Shown piece after piece: positions 1-60,428 of a DNA stretch of 64,000 nt. How positions within the stretch are numbered: position 1 is the first letter of the stretch; each line of letters starts with the position of its first letter. Under the pieces are notes generated by a model. That model was given only the letters and a program-made list of their open reading frames with translations. It ran no database searches and was not told the origin of the DNA. The position numbers were made by a program, and so were the translations under genes. Origin of the DNA: Escherichia phage vB_EcoM_LNA4; sequence record MZ311864.1; one strand, given 5' to 3'.

Positions 1-284
1 ACCGTATGTTTGTTCACAAGAACGTAACTTACATCGAGGATATCTCCAACTACATCCCTGATGGTGAAGCTTACATTCTGCCGCAAGGAATCGACGACAT
101 GTTCCAGATTCACTATGCACCAGCAGATGACGTTCGTGAAGCGAACACTCCTGCACAGGAACTGTACCTGTGGTACAAATCTTCTGCATACCTGCGTGAA
201 GAAAAGGTTGAGTCCGAAACTTCCTTCCTGACTGTTAACACCCGTCCGGAACTGGTTGTTCGCTCTACTGGTACTTTCGCATAA
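1..284 (+). CDS. structural protein, C-terminal fragment (5' end outside window; possibly major capsid protein)
   Basis: ORF open from window edge, ends 284, followed directly by a strong hairpin terminator; sits upstream of the head/tail module. Confidence 0.4.
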   Translation, partial: RMFVHKNVTYIEDISNYIPDGEAYILPQGIDDMFQIHYAPADDVREANTPAQELYLWYKSSAYLREEKVESETSFLTVNTRPELVVRSTGTFA

Positions 285-306
285 GATAGCGTAACTGCTA
301 CCTCTA

Positions 307-347
307 AGAGGGGGAGGTGATTATTCACCTCTCCCTTTTTCTTTTTC
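307..347 (+). terminator. rho-independent terminator
   Basis: GC-rich inverted repeat (gggggaggtga / tcacctctccc) followed by tttttcttttt. Confidence 0.7.
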
Positions 348-417
348 GTCACCTTAATAATAGCCACTTCATCAATGGTGTCAAGTGGTTTTTACTAAGG
401 TAACCAATGGAGATTTT

Positions 418-942
418 ATGGCTAATCAAAACTATCGTATTTTCCCGAACAAAGTAGAACTGTTCAAATTCTTCGGCACTTATGCTCCGGAACTGAATGT
501 TGGTGTTTCCTCACGTCTTCCTCTGAATGGATTTTGTGTTGGAAAAGAGCATAAGGCTTTCCGCAACTCTGTTGAGTTCTTCAAGGCACTAGCAGAGATC
601 TCTGGCCTAGATGTAGATGCTGAACATTCAACGCTGCGTATGGGTACATACATCGTATTTTTCAACAGTGCTCTTCCAAACCCTAACCGTCGCGGTAAGG
701 CAGTTGAGGCGACTGTGGCTCCGAAGGTTGATGCTCCGGTGGTTGAGGTTAAGTCTGCGAGTTATGAAGCAATCCTAACAGAAGCAGAAGCCCTCAATGA
801 TGAATCTGACAAAAAAGGAAGCAAGGATAAACTTGCTGACCTGGCAGCAACCAAAGGCATCACCCTTGCGAAAAACAAATCTTTCGAAAACATGATGGCT
901 GACTTCAAGGCTGCTCTTGAAGAACTAGAGCCTGCAAAATAA
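418..942 (+). CDS. hypothetical structural protein
   Basis: ORF with GGAG 5 nt upstream of ATG at 418 (preferred over ATG at 385); stop abuts next gene. Confidence 0.55.
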   Translation: MANQNYRIFPNKVELFKFFGTYAPELNVGVSSRLPLNGFCVGKEHKAFRNSVEFFKALAEISGLDVDAEHSTLRMGTYIVFFNSALPNPNRRGKAVEATVAPKVDAPVVEVKSASYEAILTEAEALNDESDKKGSKDKLADLAATKGITLAKNKSFENMMADFKAALEELEPAK

Positions 943-951
943 GGGGTAAAA

Positions 952-3573
952 ATGGCAGATTACAATGATAAGGTCGTTAACGCCGAACTGATCCTCCCAG
1001 AGGGCGGTGCGGGGGAGACCTTTGTTGATGATGGTCAATTCCACACGGAAGACACGACCACCGTCACACTTCTCGGTAATGGTACATCCACTACCCCACT
1101 GAAGGCAACTGTTATTGTAGATCCTGCTTCCGGAAACGCACTTGTAGCTGGCTCTGACGGTCTTTCCGTTGGTGTCAGTACAATCAGTGACAACCTGCTT
1201 GTATTGGCGGGTGGAAAGCTGTATGTTGCTCCTCCTCAGATCGTCATCCCAATTTCTACTAAGACTGGAAACACTCTAGTAGAAGTCACCGACCCAGGTG
1301 AAGAGGGGCTATATGTCCCGCCGGGTGAAAAGGGTGATAAAGGGGATCAGGGGCCGCAAGGTGAACCGGGTGTCGGTATTTACATCCAAGGTATTGTTGG
1401 AGATCCATCCCAACTACCGCCTGCATCAACAATGCAGGAAGGCGATACATACGTTATTGGAACACACTACTGGACTGTTGTAAACCAGCAATGGGTTGAC
1501 CTTGGTGACTTCGCTGGTCCACAGGGACAGGACGGTATCGGCTTGGTAATCAAAGGATCTTTCACCGACACTGCATTCCTTCCGCAAGATGGGAACACCG
1601 AAGGTGATACCTACATCATCCAGGAACAGATGTGGGTTTGGACAGGAAATGAAGACGGCTGGCAACCAGTTGGGCAAGTTGGACCAACAGGCCCACAGGG
1701 TGCTACTGGTGCTACAGGCCCACAGGGTCCTCAAGGTTTAAAAGGCGACAAGGGTGACAAGGGTGACCAAGGCCCTCAAGGTATTCAAGGCCTCACCGGA
1801 GAACAGGGTCCTCAAGGACCTAAAGGTGATAAAGGTGAAGATGCTGCCATTGTTAAACTGAAAGGTACTAAAGCCACTGAAGCTGATCTTCCGGCTTTCG
1901 GTAATGCTGTCGCTGATGCTTGGGTTGTACAGGAAAACAACCACGTATGGGTTTGGACATCAGATGGTGCCTGGGAAGATATTGGCCCTGTACAGGGTCC
2001 GAAGGGTGATCAAGGTGATGTTGGCCCTCAAGGACCACAGGGACAGAAAGGCGACCAAGGTCCAATCGGCCCTGATGGTGCCCCTGGCCCAGCAGGTGCT
2101 GAAGGCCCTCAAGGTATTCAGGGTCCAATCGGCCCTAAAGGTGACAAAGGCGATACAGGTCTAACTGGTCCAGTAGGCCCACAAGGTCCAGTTGGACCAA
2201 AGGGTGACCGTGGCGAAACAGGTTATGGTGCTCGCGTTCTTGGTACTAAAGGCTCAACCGTCGATCTTCCAGCTACAGGAACACCTGGTGACGCATGGAT
2301 CATTGTGCCTAACCTTTACGTCTGGAGTCAGTCTGATGCTCAATGGATCAACGTAGGTCCTTATGTAGGACCGAAGGGTGATAAAGGCGATACTGGGGAT
2401 GTTGGTGCAACAGGCCCTAAAGGTGATACTGGCGCTGATGGGCCGCAGGGTCCACAGGGTGATGTTGGCCCCCAAGGACCAGCAGGTGCTGATGGAGCAC
2501 AAGGACCAGAGGGACCTATGGGTGTTGCTCTTGTTCCGAAAGGTACTGTAGCTAGCCAAGCTGCATTGCCGACAGGTGCATCGCACGGGGATTATTACAC
2601 AACTGATGACACCGGGGAAGGCTTTGCTTTTGATGGTTCCGGTTGGATTAATCTTGGTGTTATGAGAGGTCCTCAAGGGGATCAAGGTCCACAAGGGCTA
2701 CAGGGCGACACGGGGCCACAAGGTCCGAAGGGCGACACAGGACTTACAGGACCAACAGGACCGCAAGGCCCTCAAGGTGAAATGGGTCCTGGTGTAGAGA
2801 TCATCGGCAAACTGGACAACAGTTCTGAACTACCTTCAACAGGTACATTAGGCCAGGGATACCTGATCAATGGTGACTTCTGGGGGTGGACAGGAACAAC
2901 CTACGAAAACCTTGGACCTATTCAAGGACCTCAAGGTGATGTTGGTCCAGCAGGACCAACTGGTCCACAGGGTAGCCAAGGGATTCAGGGTGTTAAGGGA
3001 GACCAAGGTACACTTTGGTTAAACTTTGCACGTAACCCAGGCCCTGCTGATGGTCGTGTTGGGGATTACTTCATTAACAAATCTACACTTGAATATTTCC
3101 AGAAAACCTCTGCTACGGTATGGGCTTCTCTCGGATATATGGGTGGTGGTAACGTTTATGATACCTCCTCTACCACACCACAAGCTCGTACAAGTTCAGG
3201 TTGGGTGGATGTTCCAGTTCTTGAAGCACCTACTGATAGCGGTTATTATGTTCGTGTAAACAGCGCATGGAAGAAGCTTGATCGTTACGATCTTCTTGTT
3301 ACCTCCACGACTGGTGCAATGGACGTTAACGTATCACAAGTGTTCAAAGTCGATGGTACTGCAAACAAGACCATGAGCTTTACAAACCTCCCTGCTGACC
3401 GAGCGATGACAATCGTGATCGTGTTTACTGGTTCCGGTGCGTCACTGACGTGGCCTGGAAACCTTGCATGGTCAAACGGTACGTCAGTAACTCTTGGAAC
3501 AACCCGTACAGTGGTGACTATCCTTTGGGATGGCACAAACCTGACAGGTACTACATCCTTAACGGTTAACTGA
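952..3573 (+). CDS. collagen-like repeat protein (Gly-X-Y tracts), putative fibre/decoration protein
   Basis: 873 aa; long GPQGxxGxKGDxG runs alternating with seven Trp-containing modules; AAGGGG RBS. Confidence 0.85.
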   Translation: MADYNDKVVNAELILPEGGAGETFVDDGQFHTEDTTTVTLLGNGTSTTPLKATVIVDPASGNALVAGSDGLSVGVSTISDNLLVLAGGKLYVAPPQIVIPISTKTGNTLVEVTDPGEEGLYVPPGEKGDKGDQGPQGEPGVGIYIQGIVGDPSQLPPASTMQEGDTYVIGTHYWTVVNQQWVDLGDFAGPQGQDGIGLVIKGSFTDTAFLPQDGNTEGDTYIIQEQMWVWTGNEDGWQPVGQVGPTGPQGATGATGPQGPQGLKGDKGDKGDQGPQGIQGLTGEQGPQGPKGDKGEDAAIVKLKGTKATEADLPAFGNAVADAWVVQENNHVWVWTSDGAWEDIGPVQGPKGDQGDVGPQGPQGQKGDQGPIGPDGAPGPAGAEGPQGIQGPIGPKGDKGDTGLTGPVGPQGPVGPKGDRGETGYGARVLGTKGSTVDLPATGTPGDAWIIVPNLYVWSQSDAQWINVGPYVGPKGDKGDTGDVGATGPKGDTGADGPQGPQGDVGPQGPAGADGAQGPEGPMGVALVPKGTVASQAALPTGASHGDYYTTDDTGEGFAFDGSGWINLGVMRGPQGDQGPQGLQGDTGPQGPKGDTGLTGPTGPQGPQGEMGPGVEIIGKLDNSSELPSTGTLGQGYLINGDFWGWTGTTYENLGPIQGPQGDVGPAGPTGPQGSQGIQGVKGDQGTLWLNFARNPGPADGRVGDYFINKSTLEYFQKTSATVWASLGYMGGGNVYDTSSTTPQARTSSGWVDVPVLEAPTDSGYYVRVNSAWKKLDRYDLLVTSTTGAMDVNVSQVFKVDGTANKTMSFTNLPADRAMTIVIVFTGSGASLTWPGNLAWSNGTSVTLGTTRTVVTILWDGTNLTGTTSLTVN
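1285..3010 (+). repeat. Gly-X-Y codon repeat region inside collagen-like gene
   Basis: Repeated ggtccNcaaggt / aaaggtgataaaggcga units visible at DNA level. Confidence 0.7.
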
Positions 3574-3575
3574 CA

Positions 3576-3597
3576 AAAGGGGCTTCGGCCCCTTCTA
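3576..3597 (+). terminator. GGGGC-UUCG-GCCCC stem-loop, weak terminator or RNA stability element
   Basis: Perfect 5-bp GC stem with UUCG loop after collagen-like gene; short T tract (ttct). Confidence 0.45.
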
Positions 3598-3608
3598 AAG
3601 GAGAACAA

Positions 3609-4253
3609 ATGGTAGTATATTCCTACACACCGATGATCAGGTCTTCTGACGGTAAATACCCAGTATATCTTACTGATTTCAGGGCAGACAACCCTAACGT
3701 CAGCATTGGTACTTGGGTTTACTCAGAGAACATTGCAGAGTTCGGATATTTTCCGGTGATCCCTGTGACACCGCCAACTGGTGATGTTGTCATGGAAGGA
3801 CCTCCTGAATTTAACGACCAAACCCAGCAATGGGAACAGACATGGACATCTCGTGATTTCTTACCTGAAGAAATTGCTGCGAATCTCGAATCTGCAAAGC
3901 AGAGTAAGAAAGCAGAGGCACAGAACGTCCTCTCCCGCGATGTTGATTTAGGTATTCCATACCCGGTTGGTAACGTTGAGTATAAAGTCAGAGTGAAAAG
4001 CTTCGACCTCGCAACCCTTCTTACAATCAAATCGGTGCTGGATTCAGATGGTGACCAAAGCTCTGAAGTATATCCGTTCAGATTCCTTGATGGATATAAA
4101 TCAGACTTTACACACGCTGAAATGAAAGACCTTGTGATTCAGGTTTCTCGTGCTCAGTATGGTTTAATGAAGTCTTACTGGGCGTATCTTGATCAGGTCG
4201 AGCAGGCAACTACTCTACAAAATATCCCTGCACTCCCAGATTCATTCCTGTAA
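3609..4253 (+). CDS. hypothetical structural protein
   Basis: 214 aa ORF with AAGGAG RBS, tightly packed in structural block. Confidence 0.55.
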   Translation: MVVYSYTPMIRSSDGKYPVYLTDFRADNPNVSIGTWVYSENIAEFGYFPVIPVTPPTGDVVMEGPPEFNDQTQQWEQTWTSRDFLPEEIAANLESAKQSKKAEAQNVLSRDVDLGIPYPVGNVEYKVRVKSFDLATLLTIKSVLDSDGDQSSEVYPFRFLDGYKSDFTHAEMKDLVIQVSRAQYGLMKSYWAYLDQVEQATTLQNIPALPDSFL

Positions 4254-4262
4254 GGAGTTGTC

Positions 4263-4814
4263 ATGGTAGCTGCAACAACGGGTGTTGGTGGTATAGTTTA
4301 TGGTAGGACTCTTGTTAGCCAAAAAACTGGCAAGAAAATAGATTTTGATGATATTGGTGTGATGACCAGCAGGGTTAAGTCAGAATGTTATTTCACTGGT
4401 CTTAACCTTGTTATTCAAACAACCCCTGTAAATCTGATAAGTCTTATAAAATCTTTACCGCATACAGGTTCGTTATCCCCATTCTTTAATACAACAACCA
4501 ATAAGTTGAATGTTTTTAATGAGGATGCGACCTGCGACTTCAAATTGAACGTTGCCGGATCTTGGGGAGGCTCTACAGGCAATAGAAGCATGACCGTAGA
4601 TTTCCCACAGACAAACGGCAACTCACTGACAAAGACAAGAGATGCTCAAGTAACCTCTGACATCCTTTCTTTCCCTACCTTCTTCAGTGTTGACAAAGGT
4701 GGTAACATTGCGACTAACGGTACAGACATAACAATAGTCTCTAACGGGTCCAATTTTACGATCACATCGCTGTTGATTATAGCTGAACAAATCATACCGA
4801 CCACAATGGTCTAA
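4263..4814 (+). CDS. hypothetical structural/fibre-like protein
   Basis: 183 aa ORF, RBS AAGGAG, Thr/Asn/Gly-rich. Confidence 0.5.
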   Translation: MVAATTGVGGIVYGRTLVSQKTGKKIDFDDIGVMTSRVKSECYFTGLNLVIQTTPVNLISLIKSLPHTGSLSPFFNTTTNKLNVFNEDATCDFKLNVAGSWGGSTGNRSMTVDFPQTNGNSLTKTRDAQVTSDILSFPTFFSVDKGGNIATNGTDITIVSNGSNFTITSLLIIAEQIIPTTMV

Positions 4815-4834
4815 CCTCTAAAGGAGAAATAAAT

Positions 4835-5134
4835 ATGGCAACTTCTGGTGTAGCTGGTCTGCTTTACGCAACTAAACTCATCGACCTCGGTACTGGACAA
4901 TCCATCAGCGTTGCTGATATTATCTCAGGATCTGGTGGCGGTGGTTCAGTAGCTTGGGCCGACATCACAGGTAAACCAACCACTTTCGCACCTGTGGCAG
5001 CAACCACAAGCGTAGTTGGTGGTGTTAAGATGGCAGCAACCCAGGCAAACAGCACAGCAACTGATGCCGCTGGTCTGGTTACTGACTTCAACGCCTTGCT
5101 TGCAAAACTTAAAGCCGCTGGTATTATGGCGTAA
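4835..5134 (+). CDS. Gly-rich small fibre-like protein
   Basis: 99 aa; AAGGAG RBS; motif WADITGKPTTFAP resembles fibre proteins. Confidence 0.5.
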   Translation: MATSGVAGLLYATKLIDLGTGQSISVADIISGSGGGGSVAWADITGKPTTFAPVAATTSVVGGVKMAATQANSTATDAAGLVTDFNALLAKLKAAGIMA

Positions 5135-5138
5135 TCAA

Positions 5139-5164
5139 GAGGCCCTTCGGGGCCTTTTATTTTA
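5139..5164 (+). terminator. rho-independent terminator (UUCG loop)
   Basis: GGCCC-TTCG-GGGCC followed by ttttatttt. Confidence 0.7.
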
Positions 5165-5561
5165 GGAGTGGCCTAACACCCGCTTCCATGTTCACGTTTA
5201 CCATTGGCTCTTTACCATCTTTGTAATATGTGCAGATGTATGCCCCCTTAAAACCTTGGGTCCCATACAGGATTGCAACATCATTCAAATATTGATACCC
5301 CTCTGTTTGTTCCGTGATTTCATTCATCTCTCCGGTCTGCACTACAGATACACCGGGTTTAAATGCCTTACGAAATGCTTGATCGCAAGAGAGCCGCACA
5401 AGACGATGAATGCTCGCTGTCTTTTCTTCTTTTGATAACCAGCTTGTCTCGATAGATCTTAGGTTGTCTTGGTCTGGGTGCTTCATGATATAGGTGGTAG
5501 TGACCAAAGCTGCAACAACAGCACCAACAACCAATGCAACAATTCCCTTAGTATTCTTCAT
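5157..5561 (-). CDS. membrane-anchored protein encoded opposite to the structural genes (moron-like)
   Basis: 134 aa ORF on minus strand with N-terminal hydrophobic helix (IVALVVGAVVAALV), flanked by terminator and AT-rich promoter region. Confidence 0.5.
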   Translation of the reverse strand: MKNTKGIVALVVGAVVAALVTTTYIMKHPDQDNLRSIETSWLSKEEKTASIHRLVRLSCDQAFRKAFKPGVSVVQTGEMNEITEQTEGYQYLNDVAILYGTQGFKGAYICTYYKDGKEPMVNVNMEAGVRPLLK

Positions 5562-5630
5562 AAAATGTTCTCCTGTATTCGTTAATTACCATTACGATAA
5601 CACGTTAGATCAGTCTGTCAAGCGTTTTTA

Positions 5631-5659
5631 ATGACAAATAGAATCTTTTATGATAAGAT
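5631..5659 (+). promoter_or_regulatory. sigma70-like promoter candidate (ATGACA-N17-TAAGAT with TG extension)
   Basis: -35 TGACA, 17-nt spacer, TGaTAAGAT extended -10, about 40 nt upstream of gene at 5696. Confidence 0.4.
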
Positions 5660-5695
5660 ATTGATTAATAGAAGAGCAATCCAACAGGAGCGAAA

Positions 5696-6214
5696 ATGAC
5701 AGACCAAGAAATTATTGATTACATTCGACTGCTCCTTGGGTCAATTCCTCCAGAGGTCTTGCCTGATGAAACCATTTTGGCATTCCTTGCAATCGAAAAG
5801 GTAAAGGCTAATTGGCCTAACCCTGATGCAACCCCTTGCGACATGTGGCGTGTTATTTATAACACAATGGTCGATGTCGTTCGTTGGTTAATTCTGCAAG
5901 AAGTTAACTCTGGTGAAGCATCTATCACAGAACGTCTGGAAAAGATCGGTGACGAAACAATCCAGGTTAAGGGTGGTTCCACATACCAGAACTGGAAAGA
6001 CTTCCTGGACTGGCTGCAAGCTAACCCTGATTATGTGAATGATTGCCTCAGCGCGGTATCAAGTTTAGTCATTGTTGGCGGTGTCCGTCAAGATGAATAT
6101 CTTCGCGTTAAAAGGAATCCAAACTCAAGAGGTCCTTTCGATGTTGCAGGCATTGTACCCCAGACTGGTGTACCGGGAATCCCTCGTAGATACCCTCACC
6201 GCTGGCCTCGTTAA
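5696..6214 (+). CDS. hypothetical head-tail joining region protein
   Basis: 172 aa ORF, CAGGAG RBS. Confidence 0.55.
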   Translation: MTDQEIIDYIRLLLGSIPPEVLPDETILAFLAIEKVKANWPNPDATPCDMWRVIYNTMVDVVRWLILQEVNSGEASITERLEKIGDETIQVKGGSTYQNWKDFLDWLQANPDYVNDCLSAVSSLVIVGGVRQDEYLRVKRNPNSRGPFDVAGIVPQTGVPGIPRRYPHRWPR

Positions 6215-6232
6215 TTATCCTTCGCTTGATCG

Positions 6233-6261
6233 TTGATTTTGCTAAGATAATGTGGTAAAAT
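6233..6261 (+). promoter_or_regulatory. sigma70-like promoter candidate (TTGATT-N17-TAAAAT, extended -10 TGg)
   Basis: Read directly; lies in the 59-nt gap before the gene at 6274. Confidence 0.45.
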
Positions 6262-6273
6262 ACCTAAACGGAT

Positions 6274-6756
6274 GTGGCTATGAGACCAAAATTCACAAGT
6301 AAGCAAGATCTGAGCCAGTTAGAGAACTTCTTCAAAGCTACCAAAGTGCTTGATTATCGTCAAGTATCATATGGTTACTACGACGACCCTCACTACTCAG
6401 GTCTTAATACTGCGACTCTCGCAGCGATTCACCAAGAGGGCTGGAACGGGCTACCTGCTCGCACATTTATGACCAGCGCCGCAGTTGCTTTCAATAAGGA
6501 ACTGAACAAACTACAACAAGATCTGTTTGCATATCTCGCAATGGGCGGTCAGAACCTGACCCCGATTCTCAACAGGATCGGTAAAGCCGGGGCGAGAAAA
6601 ATCCAATTCGTGATCGATACCGGACTATTCCCTCACAACACAGTATCTGATGCCTGGGCTGATGTCAAGGGATTCAAAGAGGCTATGTTCCACTATGGAG
6701 ACCTCAAAGAGTCCACAACATTCAGAATTTCAAAAGGTAAGGATTCGGGGGTATAA
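6274..6756 (+). CDS. hypothetical protein (head-tail module)
   Basis: 160 aa ORF (GTG at 6274 or ATG at 6280). Confidence 0.55.
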   Translation: MAMRPKFTSKQDLSQLENFFKATKVLDYRQVSYGYYDDPHYSGLNTATLAAIHQEGWNGLPARTFMTSAAVAFNKELNKLQQDLFAYLAMGGQNLTPILNRIGKAGARKIQFVIDTGLFPHNTVSDAWADVKGFKEAMFHYGDLKESTTFRISKGKDSGV

Positions 6757-7190
6757 TGGCAGGTTACAAACTTATTGGTAAGAACAAACTGATCCCACGC
6801 CCAACATTTGTTGGACGACACAGAGAATACGCCAAAGTGGATATGGACAACCCGTTTGAAAACCAAGGCATCCAAATCAACTATGAAGAGTTCGATGTCC
6901 TTGAATGCGTTGTTCAGCCGCTTACTGGTAAGGCCGCACGAGACTATACTTCTCAACTGATGCAGGAAGGTGGGAGACAATATGACTCCTTCACCGTGTA
7001 TTCCTCAGTGATGTTACGTGGCCCGGTAGAGGGTTCTAATGAACTTGCTGACCAAATTAAGCTGATGAATTCCCGTGGGGAAATGGTGTGGTTCACCGTG
7101 ATAAAGTCTGATCCCTATCAGACCACAGGTGTTGCACGTTTCCGCGCTTACGTGGTGTCTGTTCCTGAAGGGACAAACGGAGGAATTTAA
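6756..7190 (+). CDS. hypothetical protein (head-tail module)
   Basis: 144 aa ORF, start overlaps upstream stop. Confidence 0.55.
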   Translation: MAGYKLIGKNKLIPRPTFVGRHREYAKVDMDNPFENQGIQINYEEFDVLECVVQPLTGKAARDYTSQLMQEGGRQYDSFTVYSSVMLRGPVEGSNELADQIKLMNSRGEMVWFTVIKSDPYQTTGVARFRAYVVSVPEGTNGGI

Positions 7191-7720
7191 TGGCAGGATT
7201 CACCAATTCCGATGAGATCTTTGATGCCCTGACAAAAACTGTAGGTTCTTTCTGCAAAGAAACAACAGGCCGAAAAGTTGTACTGGCAGGTGAAGATGAG
7301 ATCCCAAAAATTGATGGTGAATTCATTCTTGTAGACCTTACAGCAGTTGACCAGATTGACTGGCAGGCTGATGAAGGTTTGGATGCTAACGGCAATGCAA
7401 CGACGATTCACAACTATGAGGTTGTGTATACGCTCACAGCATATCGTGGAAAAGCTCCAAGCGCTCTTAGTAGGGTTTTACAGGCGATGAACTTACCATT
7501 CATTTACGATAAATATTTTCCGACCAATTCTCCTTTTGCATACTCATCCTCTTCGACGATTTCTCGTCTGAGAGTGCCTCTGAATGTGCAGAAGTTCGAA
7601 AACCGTGCTGTGGTGCTGATTACGTTCAACGTATGCTTCATCGAAACAGACACCGGAGCTTTCGAGGACCTGGAGAAGATCAACGCTCAACTCGTTTATC
7701 ACTTTCCGGATCAAGACTAA
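7190..7720 (+). CDS. hypothetical protein (neck/tail completion region)
   Basis: 176 aa ORF, start overlaps upstream stop. Confidence 0.55.
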   Translation: MAGFTNSDEIFDALTKTVGSFCKETTGRKVVLAGEDEIPKIDGEFILVDLTAVDQIDWQADEGLDANGNATTIHNYEVVYTLTAYRGKAPSALSRVLQAMNLPFIYDKYFPTNSPFAYSSSSTISRLRVPLNVQKFENRAVVLITFNVCFIETDTGAFEDLEKINAQLVYHFPDQD

Positions 7721-7768
7721 AGAAAACCACTCGGTTATTGATAAGCATTCGCTTATTAGTGATCGTAT

Positions 7769-7788
7769 AAGAGGGCTTCGGCCCTCAT
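7769..7788 (+). other. GAGGGC-UUCG-GCCCUC stem-loop without T tract
   Basis: Perfect hairpin with UUCG loop upstream of sheath gene; no U run, so likely processing/stability element rather than terminator. Confidence 0.4.
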
Positions 7789-7850
7789 AATACAGCACAA
7801 AGAGGTGCTGGTCAATAACTGTATGTACAGAAATAAAGAAGAGGAAACCG

Positions 7851-9263
7851 ATGGCTTATAATGATAAGGTGGTTGACGTTACGGTCACGCTTGGTACTCA
7901 ACCAATCGACACCAAAGGGTTTGAAACCCCGCTGTTCCTGGCTATCCACAACGTCTTCCCTGAACGTTTTCGCGCCTATACCGAACTCGATCAGCTAGTA
8001 GATGATGGATTCGCTCCAGGTTCCCCAGCTTATGTCTTCGCAACAAAAGCATTCGCTGGTACATTCCGTCCTCAGTACCTGATGGTTGGTCGTCAAGGCT
8101 TCACTAATACCATCGTGGACTTCACTGGACAGGTAAATACCGACCCTGAAGCGCCTGTAGCCCTGAACGTAGTTTCCGGTGCTTATCAGACCAGCGTTAT
8201 CGTGGCGGTAACTGGTGCATCCACCCCAACCAGTATTGCTACCGCTCTGGCAGCATCTCTGAATGGTGATGCAACACTGACCACTGTTTTAACTGCAACC
8301 GCCAGCGCAGGTGTGGTAACAATCGCTCCTAAGAATGGTGGTGCATTCAGCGTCGGTCGCGATAGCGGAAACATGACTATCAGCAACACCTCTGGTGAAA
8401 CTGTGTCCTCTGTTCTTCCTCAGATCCTGACTGCAACTGAGAACTGGTACTTCCTGAGCACCGAGTCTCACACCAACGCATCCATCCTGGCTGCTGCTGC
8501 ATTTGCTTCTGCTAACTACAAGCTGCATGTGTATGCAACCGCCGATGAACTGGTTAAAACTGCTGGTAGCAACTCCATTGCTAACCAACTGAAAGCCCTC
8601 CAGTACGATACTTCTATCGGTATGTATGATCCGCTTGCGGATAGCGCATTCTCTGAAGGTGGTATCATCGGTGCAATGGCTTCCAACGATCCTTCTTACG
8701 GTGACTCTATTCACCTGAAGACAATGGAAGGTGTGATTGCTCCTACCCTGAGCGCTACCGACCGTATGACCATTTGGGGACAAAACTTGAACTTCTACCG
8801 TATGATTAACGGTGTTGGTTCCTTCTACGAAGGTAAGTGTGCTTCTGGCAACTACGTAGACGTTGTTCGTTTCGGTCACTGGCTGAAGTTCCGCACAGAA
8901 GAGAGCGTGTTTGGTTACATGTCTCGTCGTTCTAACATGGGTCTCTCCATGAAGATGAGTGATGACGATCTGCCAAACCTGAAGTCCGTGATGATGAACA
9001 ACCCAATCAACGTTGGCATCACCAACGGCTCTATCCTGACGGGATATGATGACGTAAACAAAGTGTTCTACGATCCGGTGATCACAATCCCGCTTCGTGC
9101 AAACATCCCGACTAACGATCTGGCTGCTCGTACTCTGAACAATGTGAAAGTGGAACTTGTGTACAACACACCACTGCACTTCGTTAAGATCCGCATGACC
9201 GTTCTGTTAGATAAAACAGGGTCTAGTTCCGGAAACGGTCAGACTGTAACAGCAGGAGTGTAA
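7851..9263 (+). CDS. tail sheath protein
   Basis: 470 aa ORF first in the order sheath-tube-chaperone-tape measure typical of myoviruses. Confidence 0.6.
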   Translation: MAYNDKVVDVTVTLGTQPIDTKGFETPLFLAIHNVFPERFRAYTELDQLVDDGFAPGSPAYVFATKAFAGTFRPQYLMVGRQGFTNTIVDFTGQVNTDPEAPVALNVVSGAYQTSVIVAVTGASTPTSIATALAASLNGDATLTTVLTATASAGVVTIAPKNGGAFSVGRDSGNMTISNTSGETVSSVLPQILTATENWYFLSTESHTNASILAAAAFASANYKLHVYATADELVKTAGSNSIANQLKALQYDTSIGMYDPLADSAFSEGGIIGAMASNDPSYGDSIHLKTMEGVIAPTLSATDRMTIWGQNLNFYRMINGVGSFYEGKCASGNYVDVVRFGHWLKFRTEESVFGYMSRRSNMGLSMKMSDDDLPNLKSVMMNNPINVGITNGSILTGYDDVNKVFYDPVITIPLRANIPTNDLAARTLNNVKVELVYNTPLHFVKIRMTVLLDKTGSSSGNGQTVTAGV

Positions 9264-9266
9264 TAA

Positions 9267-9740
9267 ATGAATACAGCTATCCTAACACCGTATGCTTACG
9301 ACCCTAAAAAAGTCAAGCTATACCTGATGACTCAGCGTGTTACTGGATTTGCCGCAGATACCAAGATCGTCGTTGCTCGTAACGAAGATAACATCATCCC
9401 CCACATGGGGGTTGATGGTGAGCTATCCGCTGCACTGTCCCGTAACCAATCTGGTGTTATGACAGTTTCCCTCCAGAACACCGCTTCTTGGAACGGAAAC
9501 TTCGCAAACTGGCAGAAACAAGCCTCCATCACCGGGCTGATCTTCTTCCCTGTCCTTCTTGAAGGTTCTCAGGGTATGGGTCTCAGCACTATCGGTTGGA
9601 TTCAGAAACAACCAGACCTGACCTACGGTACAGAAGTGGGCCAGATGGACTGGGAAATCGGTATCCTCGACGCTTGGTTAAGCCCAGATACTCTGTCTTC
9701 CGCAGGCTTCGGTCTTGCTGGTCTTGCAGGTATCGTATAA
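9267..9740 (+). CDS. tail tube protein
   Basis: 157 aa ORF immediately after sheath gene, GGAG RBS. Confidence 0.55.
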   Translation: MNTAILTPYAYDPKKVKLYLMTQRVTGFAADTKIVVARNEDNIIPHMGVDGELSAALSRNQSGVMTVSLQNTASWNGNFANWQKQASITGLIFFPVLLEGSQGMGLSTIGWIQKQPDLTYGTEVGQMDWEIGILDAWLSPDTLSSAGFGLAGLAGIV

Positions 9741-9815
9741 GTGTTTCGTGTGCCACATGGACGTGGCCTTTCACACACGTAAGGATCTCTCAATCTCAAA
9801 GACGCAGGAGCGTAC

Positions 9816-10289
9816 ATGAATATCAGACCAACAACTGAAATCGACCTCGCAGGTCACAACTTTGTTATCACGCACTGGTCTCCTTCCAAGGTTATGAAAA
9901 ACCTTCCGAAGATCGGTCGTTATGTAGCAGTCCCTATGGCAACCATCTCTGGTTCCATGATGACTGGAGGCCAGAACCTATCTGACGCCCTCCCAACTGC
10001 TATTCTATACCTCTTTGAACAGATGGAGCAAGATGATATCGAAAAACTTTTCGCATTGATTCTTGAGGATGTATCCGTTGATGGTATGGCGGGTAAAGTA
10101 GATATTGACGCTCTGTTCCAAGATAAAATGTTAGACCTCATTAAGCTTGTTGCTAAAGTTCTGGAGATTAACTACGGCTGTTTTTTCACGAAAGACGGTT
10201 TCGCAGACCTTCAGGGACTTCTGGGACGCCTGGGACAGACCCATCAAGTGAATACGGTGGATCAGGCGACGGAAGTGGCAGCGGAGTAA
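9816..10289 (+). CDS. tail assembly chaperone (G-like, zero-frame product)
   Basis: 157 aa ORF just upstream of tape measure gene; contains slippery heptamer near 3' end. Confidence 0.6.
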   Translation: MNIRPTTEIDLAGHNFVITHWSPSKVMKNLPKIGRYVAVPMATISGSMMTGGQNLSDALPTAILYLFEQMEQDDIEKLFALILEDVSVDGMAGKVDIDALFQDKMLDLIKLVAKVLEINYGCFFTKDGFADLQGLLGRLGQTHQVNTVDQATEVAAE

Positions 10290-10567
10290 CACCGTCCAAA
10301 ATTTCGAAAGTCGTCCTGAGAGCTATGGAGTATGCAAAGAAAAATAGCTCACTGACTTGGTTCGATTACTTGTGGTGTCGTGCTCTGAAAAATTTCAAAG
10401 GGGAATCTTATATGTCCCTTGAACATGCGGATATGGCCTATCTGCTCAGGCTGAATGAATTTCTTGATGTGGAAGAGTTTGTCAACGATGTCCACGAGAG
10501 AGAGGAAGATAGTAAAGCAAAAGCTGCTCAAGCCGCTAACAAGCCGCGCCGTGGTAGAAGAGGTTAA
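10172..10567 (+). CDS. -1 frame extension of tail assembly chaperone (GT-like fusion product, about 250 aa)
   Basis: Frame is open 150 nt upstream of its first ATG (10325), overlapping the chaperone 3' end; ATG at 10325 lacks a good RBS. Confidence 0.5.
   Translation, partial: LRLFFHERRFRRPSGTSGTPGTDPSSEYGGSGDGSGSGVTPSKISKVVLRAMEYAKKNSSLTWFDYLWCRALKNFKGESYMSLEHADMAYLLRLNEFLDVEEFVNDVHEREEDSKAKAAQAANKPRRGRRG
10181..10187 (+). other. candidate -1 programmed ribosomal frameshift slippery site T_TTT_TTC
   Basis: X_XXY_YYZ heptamer in frame 0 of chaperone gene; -1 frame open from 10172 to 10567. Confidence 0.5.
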
Positions 10568-10570
10568 TCT

Positions 10571-10609
10571 CAAGCCGGGTTCCTTTTCGGGAACCTGGCT
10601 TTTTTATTG
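10571..10609 (+). terminator. rho-independent terminator
   Basis: aagccgggttcc-ttttc-gggaacctggctt hairpin followed by tttttatt. Confidence 0.7.
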
Positions 10610-10620
10610 AGAGGAAATCA

Positions 10621-13014
10621 ATGGCGAACATTATTGTTACCCAGACAGTCAACAAGGTTGTTTGGGATGTTGATAAGACATCCTACGGACGCGCTCTGAA
10701 AGCCGTCAAGTCTTTGAAGACAGAATGGGAAAAAGCTGGTAAGGCGTTCTCTGCCAGCAAGTCCGACCCCGCAGCAGCACTAAAGCGTTCAGCAATGCAA
10801 GCTCGCCTTGTCAACAAAAGACTGCAACAGACTGAACGTGCTGAACAAGCAAAGACCACAGCCCACAATATCGCGATGGCGAAGAAAGAGGCTCGTGCTC
10901 GTGAAGCAATTGATAAGATCCAAAGAGCACGTAGGAAACAAGCTGTAGCCCAGCTTACAGCAAAACGCTCACCAGAGTCTCAGGCTGATTATAATGGACT
11001 AAAAGCTCGTCTGCGTCAAATGGAAAAAACAGGGGGTGGTTACGGTACTAATCCTGCAATTTCCGCTGCACGTCAAGCTGCACTGCAAGAAGAACTGGCT
11101 CGCCGTTCTAAATCAGGAAACGCTTCAGGTATGGTTGGTAGTGGTACTGCCTCTGATCCGGCACTGATTGCTCGTCAAAACCGTGCAATGCAACAGCAGG
11201 TCCAGCGTCAACAGCAGAAAGCATCCAGAGAGCAACTTCGTGCTCGTGAACAAGCTCGTAAGAAACAAGAGGCAGAAGACCTTCGTTACTCTCGTTATCT
11301 TGCAGGTAAAGAATCTACCGTAGCCAACGCTGCTGTACGTCTTCGTGCAAAATATGGTGATAACTACGCAACGAAACTCAAGGGTTTCGACTCCTTGAAA
11401 GAAAGATTCCTTGACAGCAACACAATGAAGTCTTCTAACTTCCGTGCTGAACTTGCTGCTATGGAGACCGGGCTTCGTAAAGCAAATCAGAACACCCTCT
11501 CCCTGACAGATGGGCTGAAGAACCTGCGTAGCACACTAGTCAGTGTCACTGCTGCTTACGGAGCATTCAACGCTGCTGCAAGTGTTGTAAGAACAGGTCA
11601 GTTCTTCCAGGGTATGGAGGCCACTATGTTGATGGTTTCTGATAACTCAGAGGAGGCTGGTAAGCGCATGAAGTTTGTCCGTGACCAGTCCTACCGTTTA
11701 GGTCTTGATCTTAAGGTAGCGGCACAGGGTTACACGCAGATGGCTATCGCTGCTGACGGTGTTCTGAGTAAATCACAGAACGATGAGTTGTTCAAGTCTT
11801 TCTCTGAGTATGCAACAGCCCTACAGGTTGACCCGGTTAAATACCAACGTGGTATTACCGCGATTCAACAGATGATGGGTAAGGGTCAGATCATGGCTGA
11901 AGAACTTAAGCAACAACTTGCGGAAGGTATTCCGGGTTCTTTACAGGTGTTCATTAAGGCTTCTCAAGAAGCATTCAATGACTCCACCATCGACGTAACC
12001 AAGATGCTCGACATGATGCAGAAGGGTGAGTTGAAGGCTGCTAAAGTTCTACCGTTCGTTGCCAAGTATTACTCTCAAGCTGCAAATAAGGGTGGCGCTC
12101 TACAGACCGCTCTGAAAGGTAACCGTGTTGCAATGCAGCGCCTGACGCTGACATGGATGGACTTCCAGAACAAGGTGTTTGCAAGTGGTTTTGGTGACTC
12201 ATTAACTGAAGCTTTCAACGAACTCTCAAAAATTCTTGACTCCAACGGGCCTTTGGCTCAGAATCTGGGTCAATTCTTCAAGGGGTTCACTGATGGGTTC
12301 ATGTTTATGGTCTACACTGTCTACAACACCTTTGTCCTCATCCAGGGGATCATGGAGCGCTACATCCCGATCTTCCGTAAAAACGGTGAAGAACTTTCCT
12401 CTGCATGGAAATGGGTTGGATGGGGTCTTGGTGCTCTGTTCTTTGCTTCTGCACTTTTCCGTGTGTTCAACATTCTATCCAAAATTGCTGGCCTTTCCGG
12501 AGCACTCGGCTTCCTGAAGACCATCTTTGGTGGCCCTGATGATGAGGAAGGCGGTGGCGGCGATGGTAAGAACAAGAATCGTAAAGGCCCTCGTTTCGGT
12601 AAGTTTGGTAAGGCTGCTCGCTGGTTTGGTCTTTACGGACTAATTGCCGGGGAGAGTATGCTTGCTGGTGATTGGGTGTTCGACCAAGCCCAGGACTACA
12701 GCGACAAGACCTACGGAACTGAGACCACCGCAGGTGGTAACCTTAAGAAAAACTCTTGGATGGGTCAGACGTGGGACTTCATCACAGGACAGAGATCAAT
12801 GACTGACCAGCGCAGACTTGATTATCTGAACCAGAATGGTATGGTTCCTGGACCAGCAGGGGCAGCAACACCTCCGATGGTCATTCCGACAGAACCTGTT
12901 AACGGTGAGATTACGATCAAAATCGACGCAGGCGAAATGAAGAACATGATTGACCAGCAGATTGAAGCTGCGAACATGGGTAACATCAACCTAATCCTTG
13001 GTGTTCCTCAATAA
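10621..13014 (+). CDS. tail tape measure protein
   Basis: 797 aa; Ala/Gln/Arg-rich coiled-coil N-terminus, hydrophobic Gly-rich segment, position after chaperone pair. Confidence 0.8.
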   Translation: MANIIVTQTVNKVVWDVDKTSYGRALKAVKSLKTEWEKAGKAFSASKSDPAAALKRSAMQARLVNKRLQQTERAEQAKTTAHNIAMAKKEARAREAIDKIQRARRKQAVAQLTAKRSPESQADYNGLKARLRQMEKTGGGYGTNPAISAARQAALQEELARRSKSGNASGMVGSGTASDPALIARQNRAMQQQVQRQQQKASREQLRAREQARKKQEAEDLRYSRYLAGKESTVANAAVRLRAKYGDNYATKLKGFDSLKERFLDSNTMKSSNFRAELAAMETGLRKANQNTLSLTDGLKNLRSTLVSVTAAYGAFNAAASVVRTGQFFQGMEATMLMVSDNSEEAGKRMKFVRDQSYRLGLDLKVAAQGYTQMAIAADGVLSKSQNDELFKSFSEYATALQVDPVKYQRGITAIQQMMGKGQIMAEELKQQLAEGIPGSLQVFIKASQEAFNDSTIDVTKMLDMMQKGELKAAKVLPFVAKYYSQAANKGGALQTALKGNRVAMQRLTLTWMDFQNKVFASGFGDSLTEAFNELSKILDSNGPLAQNLGQFFKGFTDGFMFMVYTVYNTFVLIQGIMERYIPIFRKNGEELSSAWKWVGWGLGALFFASALFRVFNILSKIAGLSGALGFLKTIFGGPDDEEGGGGDGKNKNRKGPRFGKFGKAARWFGLYGLIAGESMLAGDWVFDQAQDYSDKTYGTETTAGGNLKKNSWMGQTWDFITGQRSMTDQRRLDYLNQNGMVPGPAGAATPPMVIPTEPVNGEITIKIDAGEMKNMIDQQIEAANMGNINLILGVPQ

Positions 13015-31270: not shown

Positions 31271-32407
31271 CTAAAAGGGAATATCGTCATCGAAGTCCAT
31301 TGGGGGAGTGTCGTCGAAGTCAACAGGCGGTGCCTGAACTGTACCGCTCAGAGGCTCCTGTACGGGCTGTGACGGCTTCTGACCTTCTTCCTGTGCAGTT
31401 GCACTAGCATAGGCATAGAACGTCGCTGCAAGGGCATACGCTTCGCGTGTTGCCTTCTCAAGTTCATCTGCGTCGATAGTCTTGCCTTTAACAGCAATTG
31501 TCGTTACAGCAAACTTAACCGCATTGCCAACTGTCTGGCCTACATCCTTACCTTCAACCTCTGACAGTTCTTTAATCAGCTTGGTTGTGACATCATGTAC
31601 CACCTTACCAGCAGCCTCTACATCACCTTTAAAGCCGGAAAGCTTCAGGTTAACGAGGGCATTCATGGCATGACCAGCAGACACACCGACAGGATCATAA
31701 GGTGTACGCTTACCTTTTCCCCCTGCTCCACCACCCTGACCAGCAGGGCCATAGGCCTTGAAGCTGTTGATGATGTTACCAGTTCCCAGATCAACGAATG
31801 CCGCCAGACGACCACCTACAGATACCTCTGCCAGTTGCTCATCAGAGAGAACTACACGACCCTCACCTTGTTTCTCATCGTTCACAACTGCAACGTTGCC
31901 TTCGATAGACAGGATTTCGCCGTAGATCTTAGCACCCTTTCCACCACCAACCTGTGCAGGAGCACTTGACTGCGGAGGTGCGGCATCTGCCGGGGCATCA
32001 ACCAGGATCTTGATGTCCTTCTTCTTACCCTGATAAGAGGTATTGGTTTTGCCGTCTTTCTCATAGGTCTGTTTCTGGACCGGGTAGATGGAGATCTCCG
32101 CACCCGGTAACAGGTCTTTATAGCTACCGTCAGCCTGCTTCACCTGGAACTGGTTTTCGTATTTCAGGTTCTTAACTTCACCTTCACCGAAAGACACAAA
32201 CTCATCAACGCCACCTGCGGTAAGCAGGATAGAGTAACGGTGAGTTGAGGAAATAGTTTTCCCCGCATTAGGACCCTTGTTGATGTGGGTAACCTTGGCA
32301 GAACCATCAGCGTTGATACGCTTGATGAATACACGCTTGATCACGCCTTTAGCTTTCAGTGCAACGGAATCATCAGCCGGGTTCACTACTTCAGTAATTA
32401 CGCTCAT
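31271..32407 (-). CDS. SSB-like replication protein with host-SSB-type acidic C-terminal tail
   Basis: ATG at 32407 with AAGGAG RBS; Gly-rich linker; C-terminus ...VDFDDTPPMDFDDDIPF. Confidence 0.6.
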   Translation of the reverse strand: MSVITEVVNPADDSVALKAKGVIKRVFIKRINADGSAKVTHINKGPNAGKTISSTHRYSILLTAGGVDEFVSFGEGEVKNLKYENQFQVKQADGSYKDLLPGAEISIYPVQKQTYEKDGKTNTSYQGKKKDIKILVDAPADAAPPQSSAPAQVGGGKGAKIYGEILSIEGNVAVVNDEKQGEGRVVLSDEQLAEVSVGGRLAAFVDLGTGNIINSFKAYGPAGQGGGAGGKGKRTPYDPVGVSAGHAMNALVNLKLSGFKGDVEAAGKVVHDVTTKLIKELSEVEGKDVGQTVGNAVKFAVTTIAVKGKTIDADELEKATREAYALAATFYAYASATAQEEGQKPSQPVQEPLSGTVQAPPVDFDDTPPMDFDDDIPF

Positions 32408-32420
32408 TCTCTCTCCTTTA

Positions 32421-32768
32421 TTACTTAGTTTCTTCAGTCTGGGTTTCAGCATTCACACCCAGAAGTCTATCAACAATCAGGTCTTCAACCTGGCTCAACA
32501 GGTTCATCGCGAAGGACGATGCACCGTTCAGTTGCAGCAGGTTGTTACGATGACCACGAACCCATGCTAAAGCCTCTTCAACAGTGCCGTACTGACCACT
32601 GTTGATAACTTTTAGCATTTCATCACGCATACGATCAGACCCGATGAATTGGCTCATCTGAGCGCCAGCGCTTGAAAGGAATACAACAGTTCCAAACTGA
32701 GCCTCATCGAGGTCAAGGAAGTGTAGTTGTTCAGGTTGTTTGTCGATAGGGGTTACTTCTTCAGTCAT
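32421..32768 (-). CDS. hypothetical protein
   Basis: ATG at 32768 with GGAGG RBS; acidic 115 aa. Confidence 0.5.
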   Translation of the reverse strand: MTEEVTPIDKQPEQLHFLDLDEAQFGTVVFLSSAGAQMSQFIGSDRMRDEMLKVINSGQYGTVEEALAWVRGHRNNLLQLNGASSFAMNLLSQVEDLIVDRLLGVNAETQTEETK

Positions 32769-32830: not shown

Positions 32831-33037
32831 TTAGCGATTTTTCTTCAGCTTTTCAATGATGCTCGAAACACCAGCCACCCCAAAAACACCAAGGATGAAG
32901 AGCACGATCACACCAACAATAAAGGCAATACCGAAATAGAGCGGTAGAAGAACAAGCCACCAAGACCAGGTGATCACACCACACAGTTTTAGTGTGATGA
33001 ATACCAGCGCTAATAGCGCCATAAAACCAATTTTCAT
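32831..33037 (-). CDS. small membrane protein (two hydrophobic helices)
   Basis: 68 aa, strongly hydrophobic. Confidence 0.45.
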   Translation of the reverse strand: MKIGFMALLALVFITLKLCGVITWSWWLVLLPLYFGIAFIVGVIVLFILGVFGVAGVSSIIEKLKKNR

Positions 33038-59680: not shown

Positions 59681-59738
59681 TGAGTTTATCCTCGTTTTGT
59701 TTGGTATGCACAAAGATTAACAGCCTCCGAAGAGGCTG

Positions 59739-60428
59739 TCAAATGTTTTTCGCAGGTTTTTTAGATGATCCTCGGTTGTAGGGTATTCCTCCCCACTCCA
59801 TGTTCTCAATTATATATCCATTGAAGCATGTCTCATCCCCACACTCGTGCTGTGTTTTTGTCAGGAATGTTATGTAATTTCGATCTTCTGTTACCATGTG
59901 TACACTGTACATTTCCCTGAACCTGTCACATCGCAAGATAGTTCCGGGGATGCTTACCTTATCCCTTGAAGGTTTGTAATAATTAGCCCGATCCTGGATA
60001 GACAGGTACGCACCAAGACAGGCGGCCTTCAGAGAGCAAGAGACCTTCAGATTATCAAAATCACCCCCGCTGATATACCACAGCAGGAGGGGTGGAGGAC
60101 AATCCTCAAACGCAACACCCGCCCATTCACCGAAGGGGAATATTCCCCTTTCGATAAAATTGAGGTGCCTGCGCTGTGTGTCTGTCTCCACATCAACATA
60201 ACTTCTTTTCTGCTTCAGGTCTATGCTTCTGTCGTAACTCTCCTCTCCCAACAAAGGTAAAGACCTTTTAAAGTAGTCTTCAGCAGCAAATTCAGGACTG
60301 TAGCTCTCCGAACCAAGGGAGATAACAGAGGCATAAGCCCATTCATCTCCACTGTTGATGCAGAGTTTAAGCTCATAAAACCCAAGCTCATGTTGTTGAC
60401 GATACAGAATCCAGCGATCTACAGACAC
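59739..60428 (-). CDS. hypothetical protein
   Basis: 229 aa ORF immediately downstream of AAA+ ATPase gene. Confidence 0.5.
   Translation of the reverse strand: MSVDRWILYRQQHELGFYELKLCINSGDEWAYASVISLGSESYSPEFAAEDYFKRSLPLLGEESYDRSIDLKQKRSYVDVETDTQRRHLNFIERGIFPFGEWAGVAFEDCPPPLLLWYISGGDFDNLKVSCSLKAACLGAYLSIQDRANYYKPSRDKVSIPGTILRCDRFREMYSVHMVTEDRNYITFLTKTQHECGDETCFNGYIIENMEWGGIPYNRGSSKKPAKNI

Follow-up and report, generated by a model that had tools for sequence, protein, structure and literature searches.

A leftward membrane-protein gene with a putative early-type promoter in the structural module of a Seunavirus and its relatives

The structural module of Escherichia phage vB_EcoM_LNA4 carries, on the opposite strand, a gene for a predicted inner-membrane protein with a periplasmic domain. 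The gene is not a mobile moron but a long-resident, vertically inherited, clade-specific accessory located in a cargo slot. The role tentatively preferred for its product, at a confidence short of even, is that of an early-made periplasmic binder protecting the infected cell in the manner of exclusion or immunity proteins. The original prediction, which had described a moron-like gene for an N-terminally anchored protein, is partly supported. The gene had already been annotated and is uncharacterised; new here are the comparative support for its promoter and for the class of that promoter, the predicted fold and topology of the protein, and the phylogenetic distribution of the family.

Gene and genomic setting

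The window (the whole stretch of DNA analysed, 64,000 nt of record MZ311864.1) is part of the genome of a Seunavirus, subfamily Vequintavirinae, a myovirus of the Cronobacter/Enterobacter type. In the region 4000–7000, its DNA is about 92% identical to that of Cronobacter phage GAP31, Enterobacter phage EC152 and Escherichia phage 4MG, and about 80% identical to that of Salmonella phage PVP-SE1. Relatives of the phage are described as lytic. According to the list of open reading frames (ORFs), the only credible minus-strand gene between 385 and 30802 occupies 5157–5561, just where a single opposite-strand ORF among plus-strand structural genes had been predicted. It begins with ATG and encodes 134 amino acids, as previously described, with a TAA stop codon at 5157–5159; the remaining minus-strand ORFs of this interval are all nested in plus-strand genes. 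The membrane gene runs leftward amid about 30 kb of rightward virion genes (385 to about 30800), which encode a collagen-like fibre, an Sf6-type needle-knob protein, a head-fibre protein, an adaptor, and neck, sheath, tube and tape measure proteins. A ribosome-binding site, AGGAG, can be read directly from the sequence at 5570–5574 (minus strand), 8 nt before the ATG, and a GGAG-type site is kept in relatives. The base composition (G+C 0.432, GC3 0.422) is ordinary and lies within the range of the neighbouring genes.

Family identity and selection

The coding sequence is supported by the ORF list, by a protein family match, by identity with a GAP31 protein and by dN/dS. The protein is a member of phrog_11434, the family of PVP-SE1 gp66, with a full-length profile match (residues 1–134 on positions 1–134 of 134, E 5.1e-72). 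The family is annotated as ‘(putative) membrane protein’ in GAP31 (gp206), 4MG and PVP-SE1 (gene 66), and in these three phages it occupies the same slot in the same orientation. GAP31_206 (gp206) shares 99.3% of its protein sequence but only 92.5% of its DNA sequence with the gene, so that a nucleotide difference of about 7.5% is accompanied by a single amino-acid change (dN/dS 0.008). Protein identity falls to 90% for 4MG, 72% for PVP-SE1 and 41–51% for the homologues from Mydovirus and Avunavirus, with dN/dS values of 0.19–0.26 in comparisons with other genera. An alignment of 10 homologues contains 44 invariant columns, both cysteines included, and the ORF is intact (at least 80% coverage) in 57 of 65 records. 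Although its small size, and the C-terminally shortened 121-aa variant found in some Klebsiella phages, might suggest a chance ORF or a decaying antisense remnant in an intergenic gap, the dN/dS values effectively refute a chance ORF, and these values, the intact records, the invariant columns and a confident fold prediction from only 10 sequences leave a non-functional ORF with a negligible probability.

The protein diverges, in terms of dN, three to four times faster than the products of the adjacent structural genes. The dN to PVP-SE1 is 0.18, compared with 0.035–0.09 for the neighbours, and the dN to Mydovirus and Avunavirus is 0.45–0.54, compared with 0.10–0.21. Such a rate is as expected for a protein engaged with a changing partner.

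The shortened variant occurs in Klebsiella phage vB_Kpn_K54_rec2 and related records (1444–1809 of locus L014), where only residues 24–115 align. Several homologues of the membrane protein carry the labels ‘adenosine deaminase’ or ‘putative portal protein’, which are evidently annotation errors; they are found in OK181858, OK136180, OK181861, ON075799 (TH18 group), KR296684 (Salmonella phage 19) and MW006477 (GEC_vB_MG).

Predicted architecture of the protein

The structural model and hydropathy predict a bitopic inner-membrane protein in which a single transmembrane helix joins a cytoplasmic tip of 5 residues to a periplasmic domain. The codons of the transmembrane helix (approximately residues 6–26) are located at 5484–5546 (minus strand), as indicated by a Kyte–Doolittle mean of 2.38 over residues 7–25, an AlphaFold2 helix spanning residues 2–27 and the alignment of homologues, in agreement with the N-terminal anchor originally predicted. 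This stretch is freely variable among the homologues, yet it is always hydrophobic. Lys2 and Lys5 precede the helix, and the flank that follows it has no net charge. The two invariant cysteines are Cys59 (codon 5385–5387), located in a helix, and Cys110 (5232–5234), located in a central strand of the sheet. Two lysines before the transmembrane helix, the lack of net charge after it and the pair of invariant cysteines suggest an N-in/C-out orientation and a periplasmic domain that is probably stabilised by a C59–C110 disulfide.

The predicted periplasmic domain (residues 27–134, codons 5160–5483, minus strand) is cystatin/NTF2-like and comprises about 105 residues. It starts with a juxtamembrane KHP motif and an SSWLS motif, both of them invariant linker motifs, followed by a helix (residues 44–64) and a five-stranded antiparallel sheet. 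The AlphaFold2 model, built from the 10-sequence alignment, has a mean pLDDT of 87.1 and contains the helix packed on a curved antiparallel sheet that is a feature of the cystatin superfamily. The cystatin/NTF2-like fold is generic and is found in enzymes, inhibitors and scaffolds alike, so the fold does not imply a function; as predicted, it would say ‘binding module’, no more.

Scans of the 134-aa protein against Pfam, NCBIfam and PADLOC gave no match, and a profile search against PDB sequences returned only noise (E > 0.4). A Foldseek comparison of the model with the PDB produced no significant match and none below E 0.06, and a comparison with BFVD found only the protein’s own family. Searches against Pfam, NCBIfam, PADLOC and PDB sequences showed no homology to Imm, Sp, SieA/B, gp15, Llp, Cor or Ltp, and the only PHROG match was to the protein’s own family.

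Promoter region

The 134-bp gap upstream of the gene (5562–5695) has a G+C content of 31%, compared with 47% for the window. The AT-rich, promoter-like region that had been predicted on this side contains a recognisable TTGACA-16 nt-TATCGT arrangement: a promoter scan located a putative leftward sigma70-type promoter at 5594–5629 (minus strand), with 10 of 12 matches and a TG. It consists of an A-tract, AAAAAC (5629–5624), a −35 element, TTGACA (5621–5616), and an extended −10 element, TGtTATCGT (5602–5594). The whole, AAAAAC-GC-TTGACA-16 nt-(TGt)TATCGT, lies about 20 nt ahead of the ribosome-binding site, and the predicted transcription start is near 5587. In an alignment of seven phages, representing three genera and two divergent metagenomic relatives, the A-tract, the entire −35 element, the G of TG and positions 1, 2 and 6 of the −10 element are invariant, while the other bases of the spacer and the −10 element vary. 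Synonymous sites are saturated at such distances. Since the critical bases are invariant while the neighbouring ones vary, the site reads as the footprint of a working sigma70 promoter.

Five sites in the 64-kb window fit the pattern A4-N1-5-TTGAC-N16-20-TAnnnT, compared with 0.26 expected from shuffled sequences, and all five are on the minus strand. Besides the membrane gene promoter (5594–5629), the sites include one at 32832, which precedes an operon with an SSB-like gene, one at 59750, which precedes small non-structural ORFs, and one at 393–357, which faces the capsid gene; the one site located inside a coding sequence probably occurs there by chance. A similar consensus has been described as a putative early promoter in the sister genus Certrevirus (PMC7344957). 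The pattern thus points to an early-type class for the leftward promoter, with the qualification that late promoters here are partly sigma70-like too and that promoter class is an indirect guide to timing. Judged by its promoter sequence, the membrane gene would be transcribed early by the host polymerase in its unmodified form, with no need for late gene activation.

A divergent, rightward promoter of the putative late type was located by a motif scan at 5631–5660 (plus strand), upstream of the adaptor gene. It has the form ATGACA-17 nt-TAAGAT, with TGATAAGATA at 5651–5660. This promoter belongs to the flanking late operon and has its control region in common with the membrane gene cassette; the reverse complement of its motif, TATCTTATCA, is kept in relatives. 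Sites of the form TGnTAARATA are located at 5651, 6240, 6253 and 22319 (plus strand), in rightward intergenic gaps of the structural module, and match the late-gene motif TggTAaAAtA reported for rV5 (PMC3606486).

The leftward −35 element and the rightward −35-like ATGACA stand back to back within a near-invariant 23-bp block at 5616–5638 (plus strand TGTCAAGCGTTTTTAATGACAAA), which has three variable positions in the seven phages. The sequence TGTCAA(G/T), equivalent to TTGACA on the other strand, is also present upstream of the adaptor gene in Hena1 (about 3425–3431 of locus L008) and CR3 (about 3440–3446 of locus L007), both of which lack the membrane gene; there it directly follows a terminator hairpin and has no minus-strand −10 element downstream. 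Either it is left over from a lost cassette or it serves the rightward operon. With TTGACA kept in these two phages, the conserved block may in part, or even solely, work for the rightward operon. Against a sole use of that kind, the distance from the block to a rightward −10 element varies (32, 33 and 22 nt, with about 12 nt at the site at 379), while the leftward −10 signature is conserved at a fixed spacing. Klebsiella phage vB_Kpn_K54_rec2 and related records have an additional small annotated ORF in the divergent promoter gap.

Terminator between the convergent genes

On the other side, the membrane gene converges with the head-fibre gene; the 22 nt that separate their stop codons are taken up by a hairpin at 5137–5158, common to the plus-strand head-fibre gene and the minus-strand membrane gene. 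The hairpin, AAGAGGCCC-UUCG-GGGCCUUUU, has a folding energy of −18.3 kcal/mol and is followed by a U-tract at 5155–5163, the whole element occupying 5137–5163. For the head-fibre gene this is a textbook example of a strong intrinsic terminator. Its U-tract overlaps the last codons of the membrane gene (Leu-Leu-Lys-stop). The minus-strand tail serving the membrane gene is weak here (CUCUUGAUU); in most relatives it is U-rich (UUUUUAUUA). The hairpin is kept in seven phages, with one compensatory change of a G-C to an A-T pair, in keeping with the terminator originally predicted on this side, and the PVP-SE1 record annotates it as a terminator on both strands. A simple terminator scan did not report the hairpin, presumably because extension of the stem consumes the T-run. 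A scan of positions 1–12000 against Rfam found no RNA family.

Distribution and genomic slot

A tblastn search found the gene in 65 phage records belonging to Seunavirus, Mydovirus, Avunavirus and TH18-like phages. The adjacent adaptor-type gene was found in 256 records, of which 64 have at least 80% identity and belong to the same clade and 192 are more distant. With 65 records carrying the membrane gene against 64 with an adaptor gene at this level of identity, the gene is essentially universal in one clade composed of Seunavirus, Mydovirus, Avunavirus and metagenomic relatives. In GAP31, PVP-SE1, KB57, Av-05, TH18 and two metagenomic lineages it is located on the opposite strand in the same slot, flanked by the adaptor gene and the short head-fibre gene; the most divergent homologues, which are metagenomic, are no exception. 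When 1.8 billion protein representatives were searched exhaustively with a profile, four true clusters emerged, all of the protein’s own type, and none in other phages or bacteria. Long repetitive cadherin, Ig and propeller proteins that appeared in this search were rejected after a Pfam scan as artefacts of summed repeats.

The gene is absent from three sister genera. In rV5 the slot is taken up by two rightward ORFs of unknown function, in CR3 by a gene for a collagen-like fibre and in Hena1 by one for an EPS depolymerase; none of the three has a leftward gene there, which is at odds with a universally conserved gene of structural function. The slot is a variable junction between the fibre genes and the head–tail adaptor gene. 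The moron-like label of the original prediction holds as regards the gene’s own signals, its opposite strand and its presence or absence at the level of genera; mobility and an atypical base composition are not found. The mobile reading is not supported because the gene occupies one slot in one clade and is present in about every member, and recent horizontal acquisition was rejected in view of the normal composition and the fixed slot.

The convergent region upstream differs from that of GAP31 in an extra Sf6-type needle-knob ORF and a different head-fibre gene. In the window, an ORF of 183 aa at 4263–4814 (plus strand) encodes an Sf6-type tail needle-knob domain (PF16532, E 1e-39) and is followed by a 99-aa head-fibre-like ORF at 4835–5134 (plus strand); the equivalent of 4263–5134 in GAP31 is a single 129-aa ‘head fiber’ gene. 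The recombination boundary falls directly beside the membrane gene. The collagen-repeat fibre encoded at 952–3573 (plus strand) is variable in length, with 873 aa in the window, 585 in GAP31, 918 in PVP-SE1 and 872 in a metagenomic relative.

Comparison with known systems

The membrane protein lies outside the characterised exclusion, immunity, spanin, holin and lipoprotein families, since the defining features that were looked for are absent. By analogy with such proteins, it may nonetheless work like an immunity or exclusion protein. The small early envelope proteins Sp and Imm of T4, a virulent myovirus, block wall penetration or DNA entry by a later phage; Sp is secreted and helical, and Imm has two membrane spans. 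The role proposed here would be parallel to theirs, with no similarity of sequence or fold found. T5 Llp and the Cor-type proteins are receptor-blocking outer-membrane lipoproteins with a lipobox cysteine, and llp is an early-expressed gene of opposite direction located beside host-recognition genes. They resemble the present case as accessory genes beside host-recognition genes, but differ in that the membrane protein has a full-length transmembrane helix and no cysteine before residue 59. A lipoprotein blocker of the Llp or Cor type was rejected, the protein having no lipobox and its first cysteine being residue 59. A spanin was rejected too: the domain is mostly β-sheet, it has no coiled coil, and there is no second minus-strand ORF within or adjacent to the gene.

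The colicin M immunity protein Cmi (PDB 2xgl) offers a parallel architecture, a tethered periplasmic domain with a disulfide, and is not homologous; the profile search against PDB sequences gave no match to the colicin M immunity family at E up to 10, and the context here is a phage structural module, not a colicin gene. Comparisons of the model with the periplasmic domains of VirB8, TraE and DotI and with cystatin and latexin inhibitors gave a sequence identity of only 5–17%. Relative to VirB8, the domain is about 40 residues shorter and has no secretion-system context. The inhibitory loops of cystatins (QxVxG, PW) are not conserved: residue 75 is Q, A, P or S depending on the homologue, and a PW motif is lacking.

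As in morons, a single gene is enclosed by its own promoter and terminator, at the level of sequence and comparison. The morons of temperate phages, such as that encoding HK97 gp15, are alike in these signals, in having an inner-membrane product and in that the flanking genes are adjacent in some relatives. They differ from the present gene, which belongs to a virulent phage with no expression from a prophage, has a typical composition and is fixed in a whole clade in one context only. The family belongs to the accessory envelope proteins of virulent phages.

Possible function

An early-made periplasmic binder with an exclusion- or immunity-type role is ranked first among the possible functions, tentatively, for several reasons. 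The promoter is of the putative early type, and the product would be a tethered binding domain facing the periplasm with a probable disulfide; sister genera dispense with the gene, and the protein evolves fast. There is also an analogy with T5 llp and with cor, protective genes that adjoin receptor-recognition genes: llp is linked with the receptor-binding gene oad, and cor is linked with tail-fibre genes. The membrane gene itself adjoins host-interaction cargo comprising fibres, a needle-knob domain and, in Hena1, a depolymerase. If the preferred reading is correct, host RNA polymerase would transcribe the gene early, the protein would insert in the N-in/C-out orientation, and DsbA would form the C59–C110 disulfide. 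The tethered domain would then bind or block its partners where the inner membrane faces the periplasm and would shield the infected cell from agents arriving via the periplasm, for example by keeping superinfecting related phages from penetrating the wall or delivering their genome, or by blocking lysis from without.

A more specific form of this proposal, at present doubtful, is that the family consists of tethered, disulfide-locked periplasmic blockers of cystatin fold that virulent Seuna-, Mydo- and Avunaviruses switch on early, from a host-type promoter set back to back with a late one within the virion operon, and that exclude later-arriving phage. The target of such a blocker may be a tail-borne wall-degrading or membrane-penetrating component, and by analogy it may be functionally like T4 Spackle, with an unrelated fold. 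The literature searched contained no data on transcripts, timing, localisation or phenotype for any member of the family, and nothing specific was found in the literature on transcriptomics or exclusion in Vequintavirinae.

Less probably, the tethered domain could inhibit or redirect a periplasmic or inner-membrane enzyme of the host for the phage’s own cycle, in a takeover of the host envelope unrelated to other phages. Candidate targets would be proteases, enzymes that hydrolyse or synthesise peptidoglycan, and components of the divisome, but no particular one can be named. The inhibitory motifs of cystatins are absent, Q75 of ‘VVQTG’ not being conserved and the PW loop missing, and the elevated dN better fits a fast-evolving partner, though hosts differ across the clade.

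A regulator of lysis timing is unlikely. Such a protein, a periplasmic sensor or antiholin, would bind a holin, a pinholin or a SAR endolysin and delay lysis, in a role like that of T4 RI. The size and layout are indeed like those of RI, with about 100–130 aa, an N-terminal hydrophobic segment (Gly, Ala, Val, Thr) and a periplasmic domain. A Mydovirus relative reportedly uses a SAR endolysin with a pinholin (PMC9902359), and in such a system periplasmic regulators are plausible.

It is more improbable still that the protein is a morphogenesis helper or a minor virion component assisting the assembly or attachment of the neighbouring head or tail fibres. The position of the gene among the structural genes, where it invariably converges with the short head-fibre gene, and its universality within the clade would accord with such a role. 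The opposite strand, a promoter of the early rather than the late type, and a periplasmic domain that cannot reach cytoplasmic assembly intermediates all argue against it, as does Hena1, which has a capsid-fibre gene without such a partner. A virion band of KP12 has been listed as a ‘12 kDa putative membrane protein’, on the strength of its size only (PMC9902359); without mass spectrometry, and with a homologue expected at about 15 kDa, the band was given no weight. The probability left over beyond the preferred exclusion- or immunity-type role and the four rivals, the non-functional ORF included, belongs to ‘something else’.

Seunaviruses such as PVP-SE1 and the Klebsiella Mydoviruses are popular candidates for biocontrol and therapy, and studies of this kind are among the records and papers retrieved. 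If the protein excludes phages or alters the envelope of the infected cell, it would bear on the combination of phages in cocktails and on competition in co-infection. Periplasmic exclusion and immunity proteins that are understood are few, and a true role of this type would bring a new fold among them. The control region is of interest as a compact arrangement, in the middle of a late operon, of early-type and late-type promoters placed back to back and insulated by a bidirectional terminator. If the role turns out to be housekeeping or minor, the finding amounts to a correctly noticed, already annotated hypothetical gene.

Other leftward sites in the window

A second leftward promoter-like site of the early type is located at 357–393 (minus strand), in the gap 285–417 between the end of the major capsid gene and the next rightward gene. 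It has the form AAAAACCAC-TTGACA-16 nt-TATTAT and is kept in GAP31 and PVP-SE1, and in Mydovirus KB57 as TTGACA plus TAATCT. The site points into the terminator hairpin and the 3′ end of the capsid gene, and no credible ORF follows it. An antisense RNA could arise from it, and it hints that early antisense transcription into the late module may be a designed feature of these phages.

Near the promoter at 32832, an ORF of 68 aa (phrog_1374, unknown function), predicted to span the membrane twice, is located at 32831–33037 (minus strand) and ends exactly where this promoter begins. Downstream of the same promoter, at 31271–32452 (minus strand), a 393-aa protein with an SSB-like acidic C-terminal tail, DDDIPF, is encoded. 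In the early-type promoter at 59713–59750 (minus strand), the spacer holds a perfect hairpin, AGCCTC-TTCG-GAGGCT, which places a terminator-like stem between the −35 and −10 elements.
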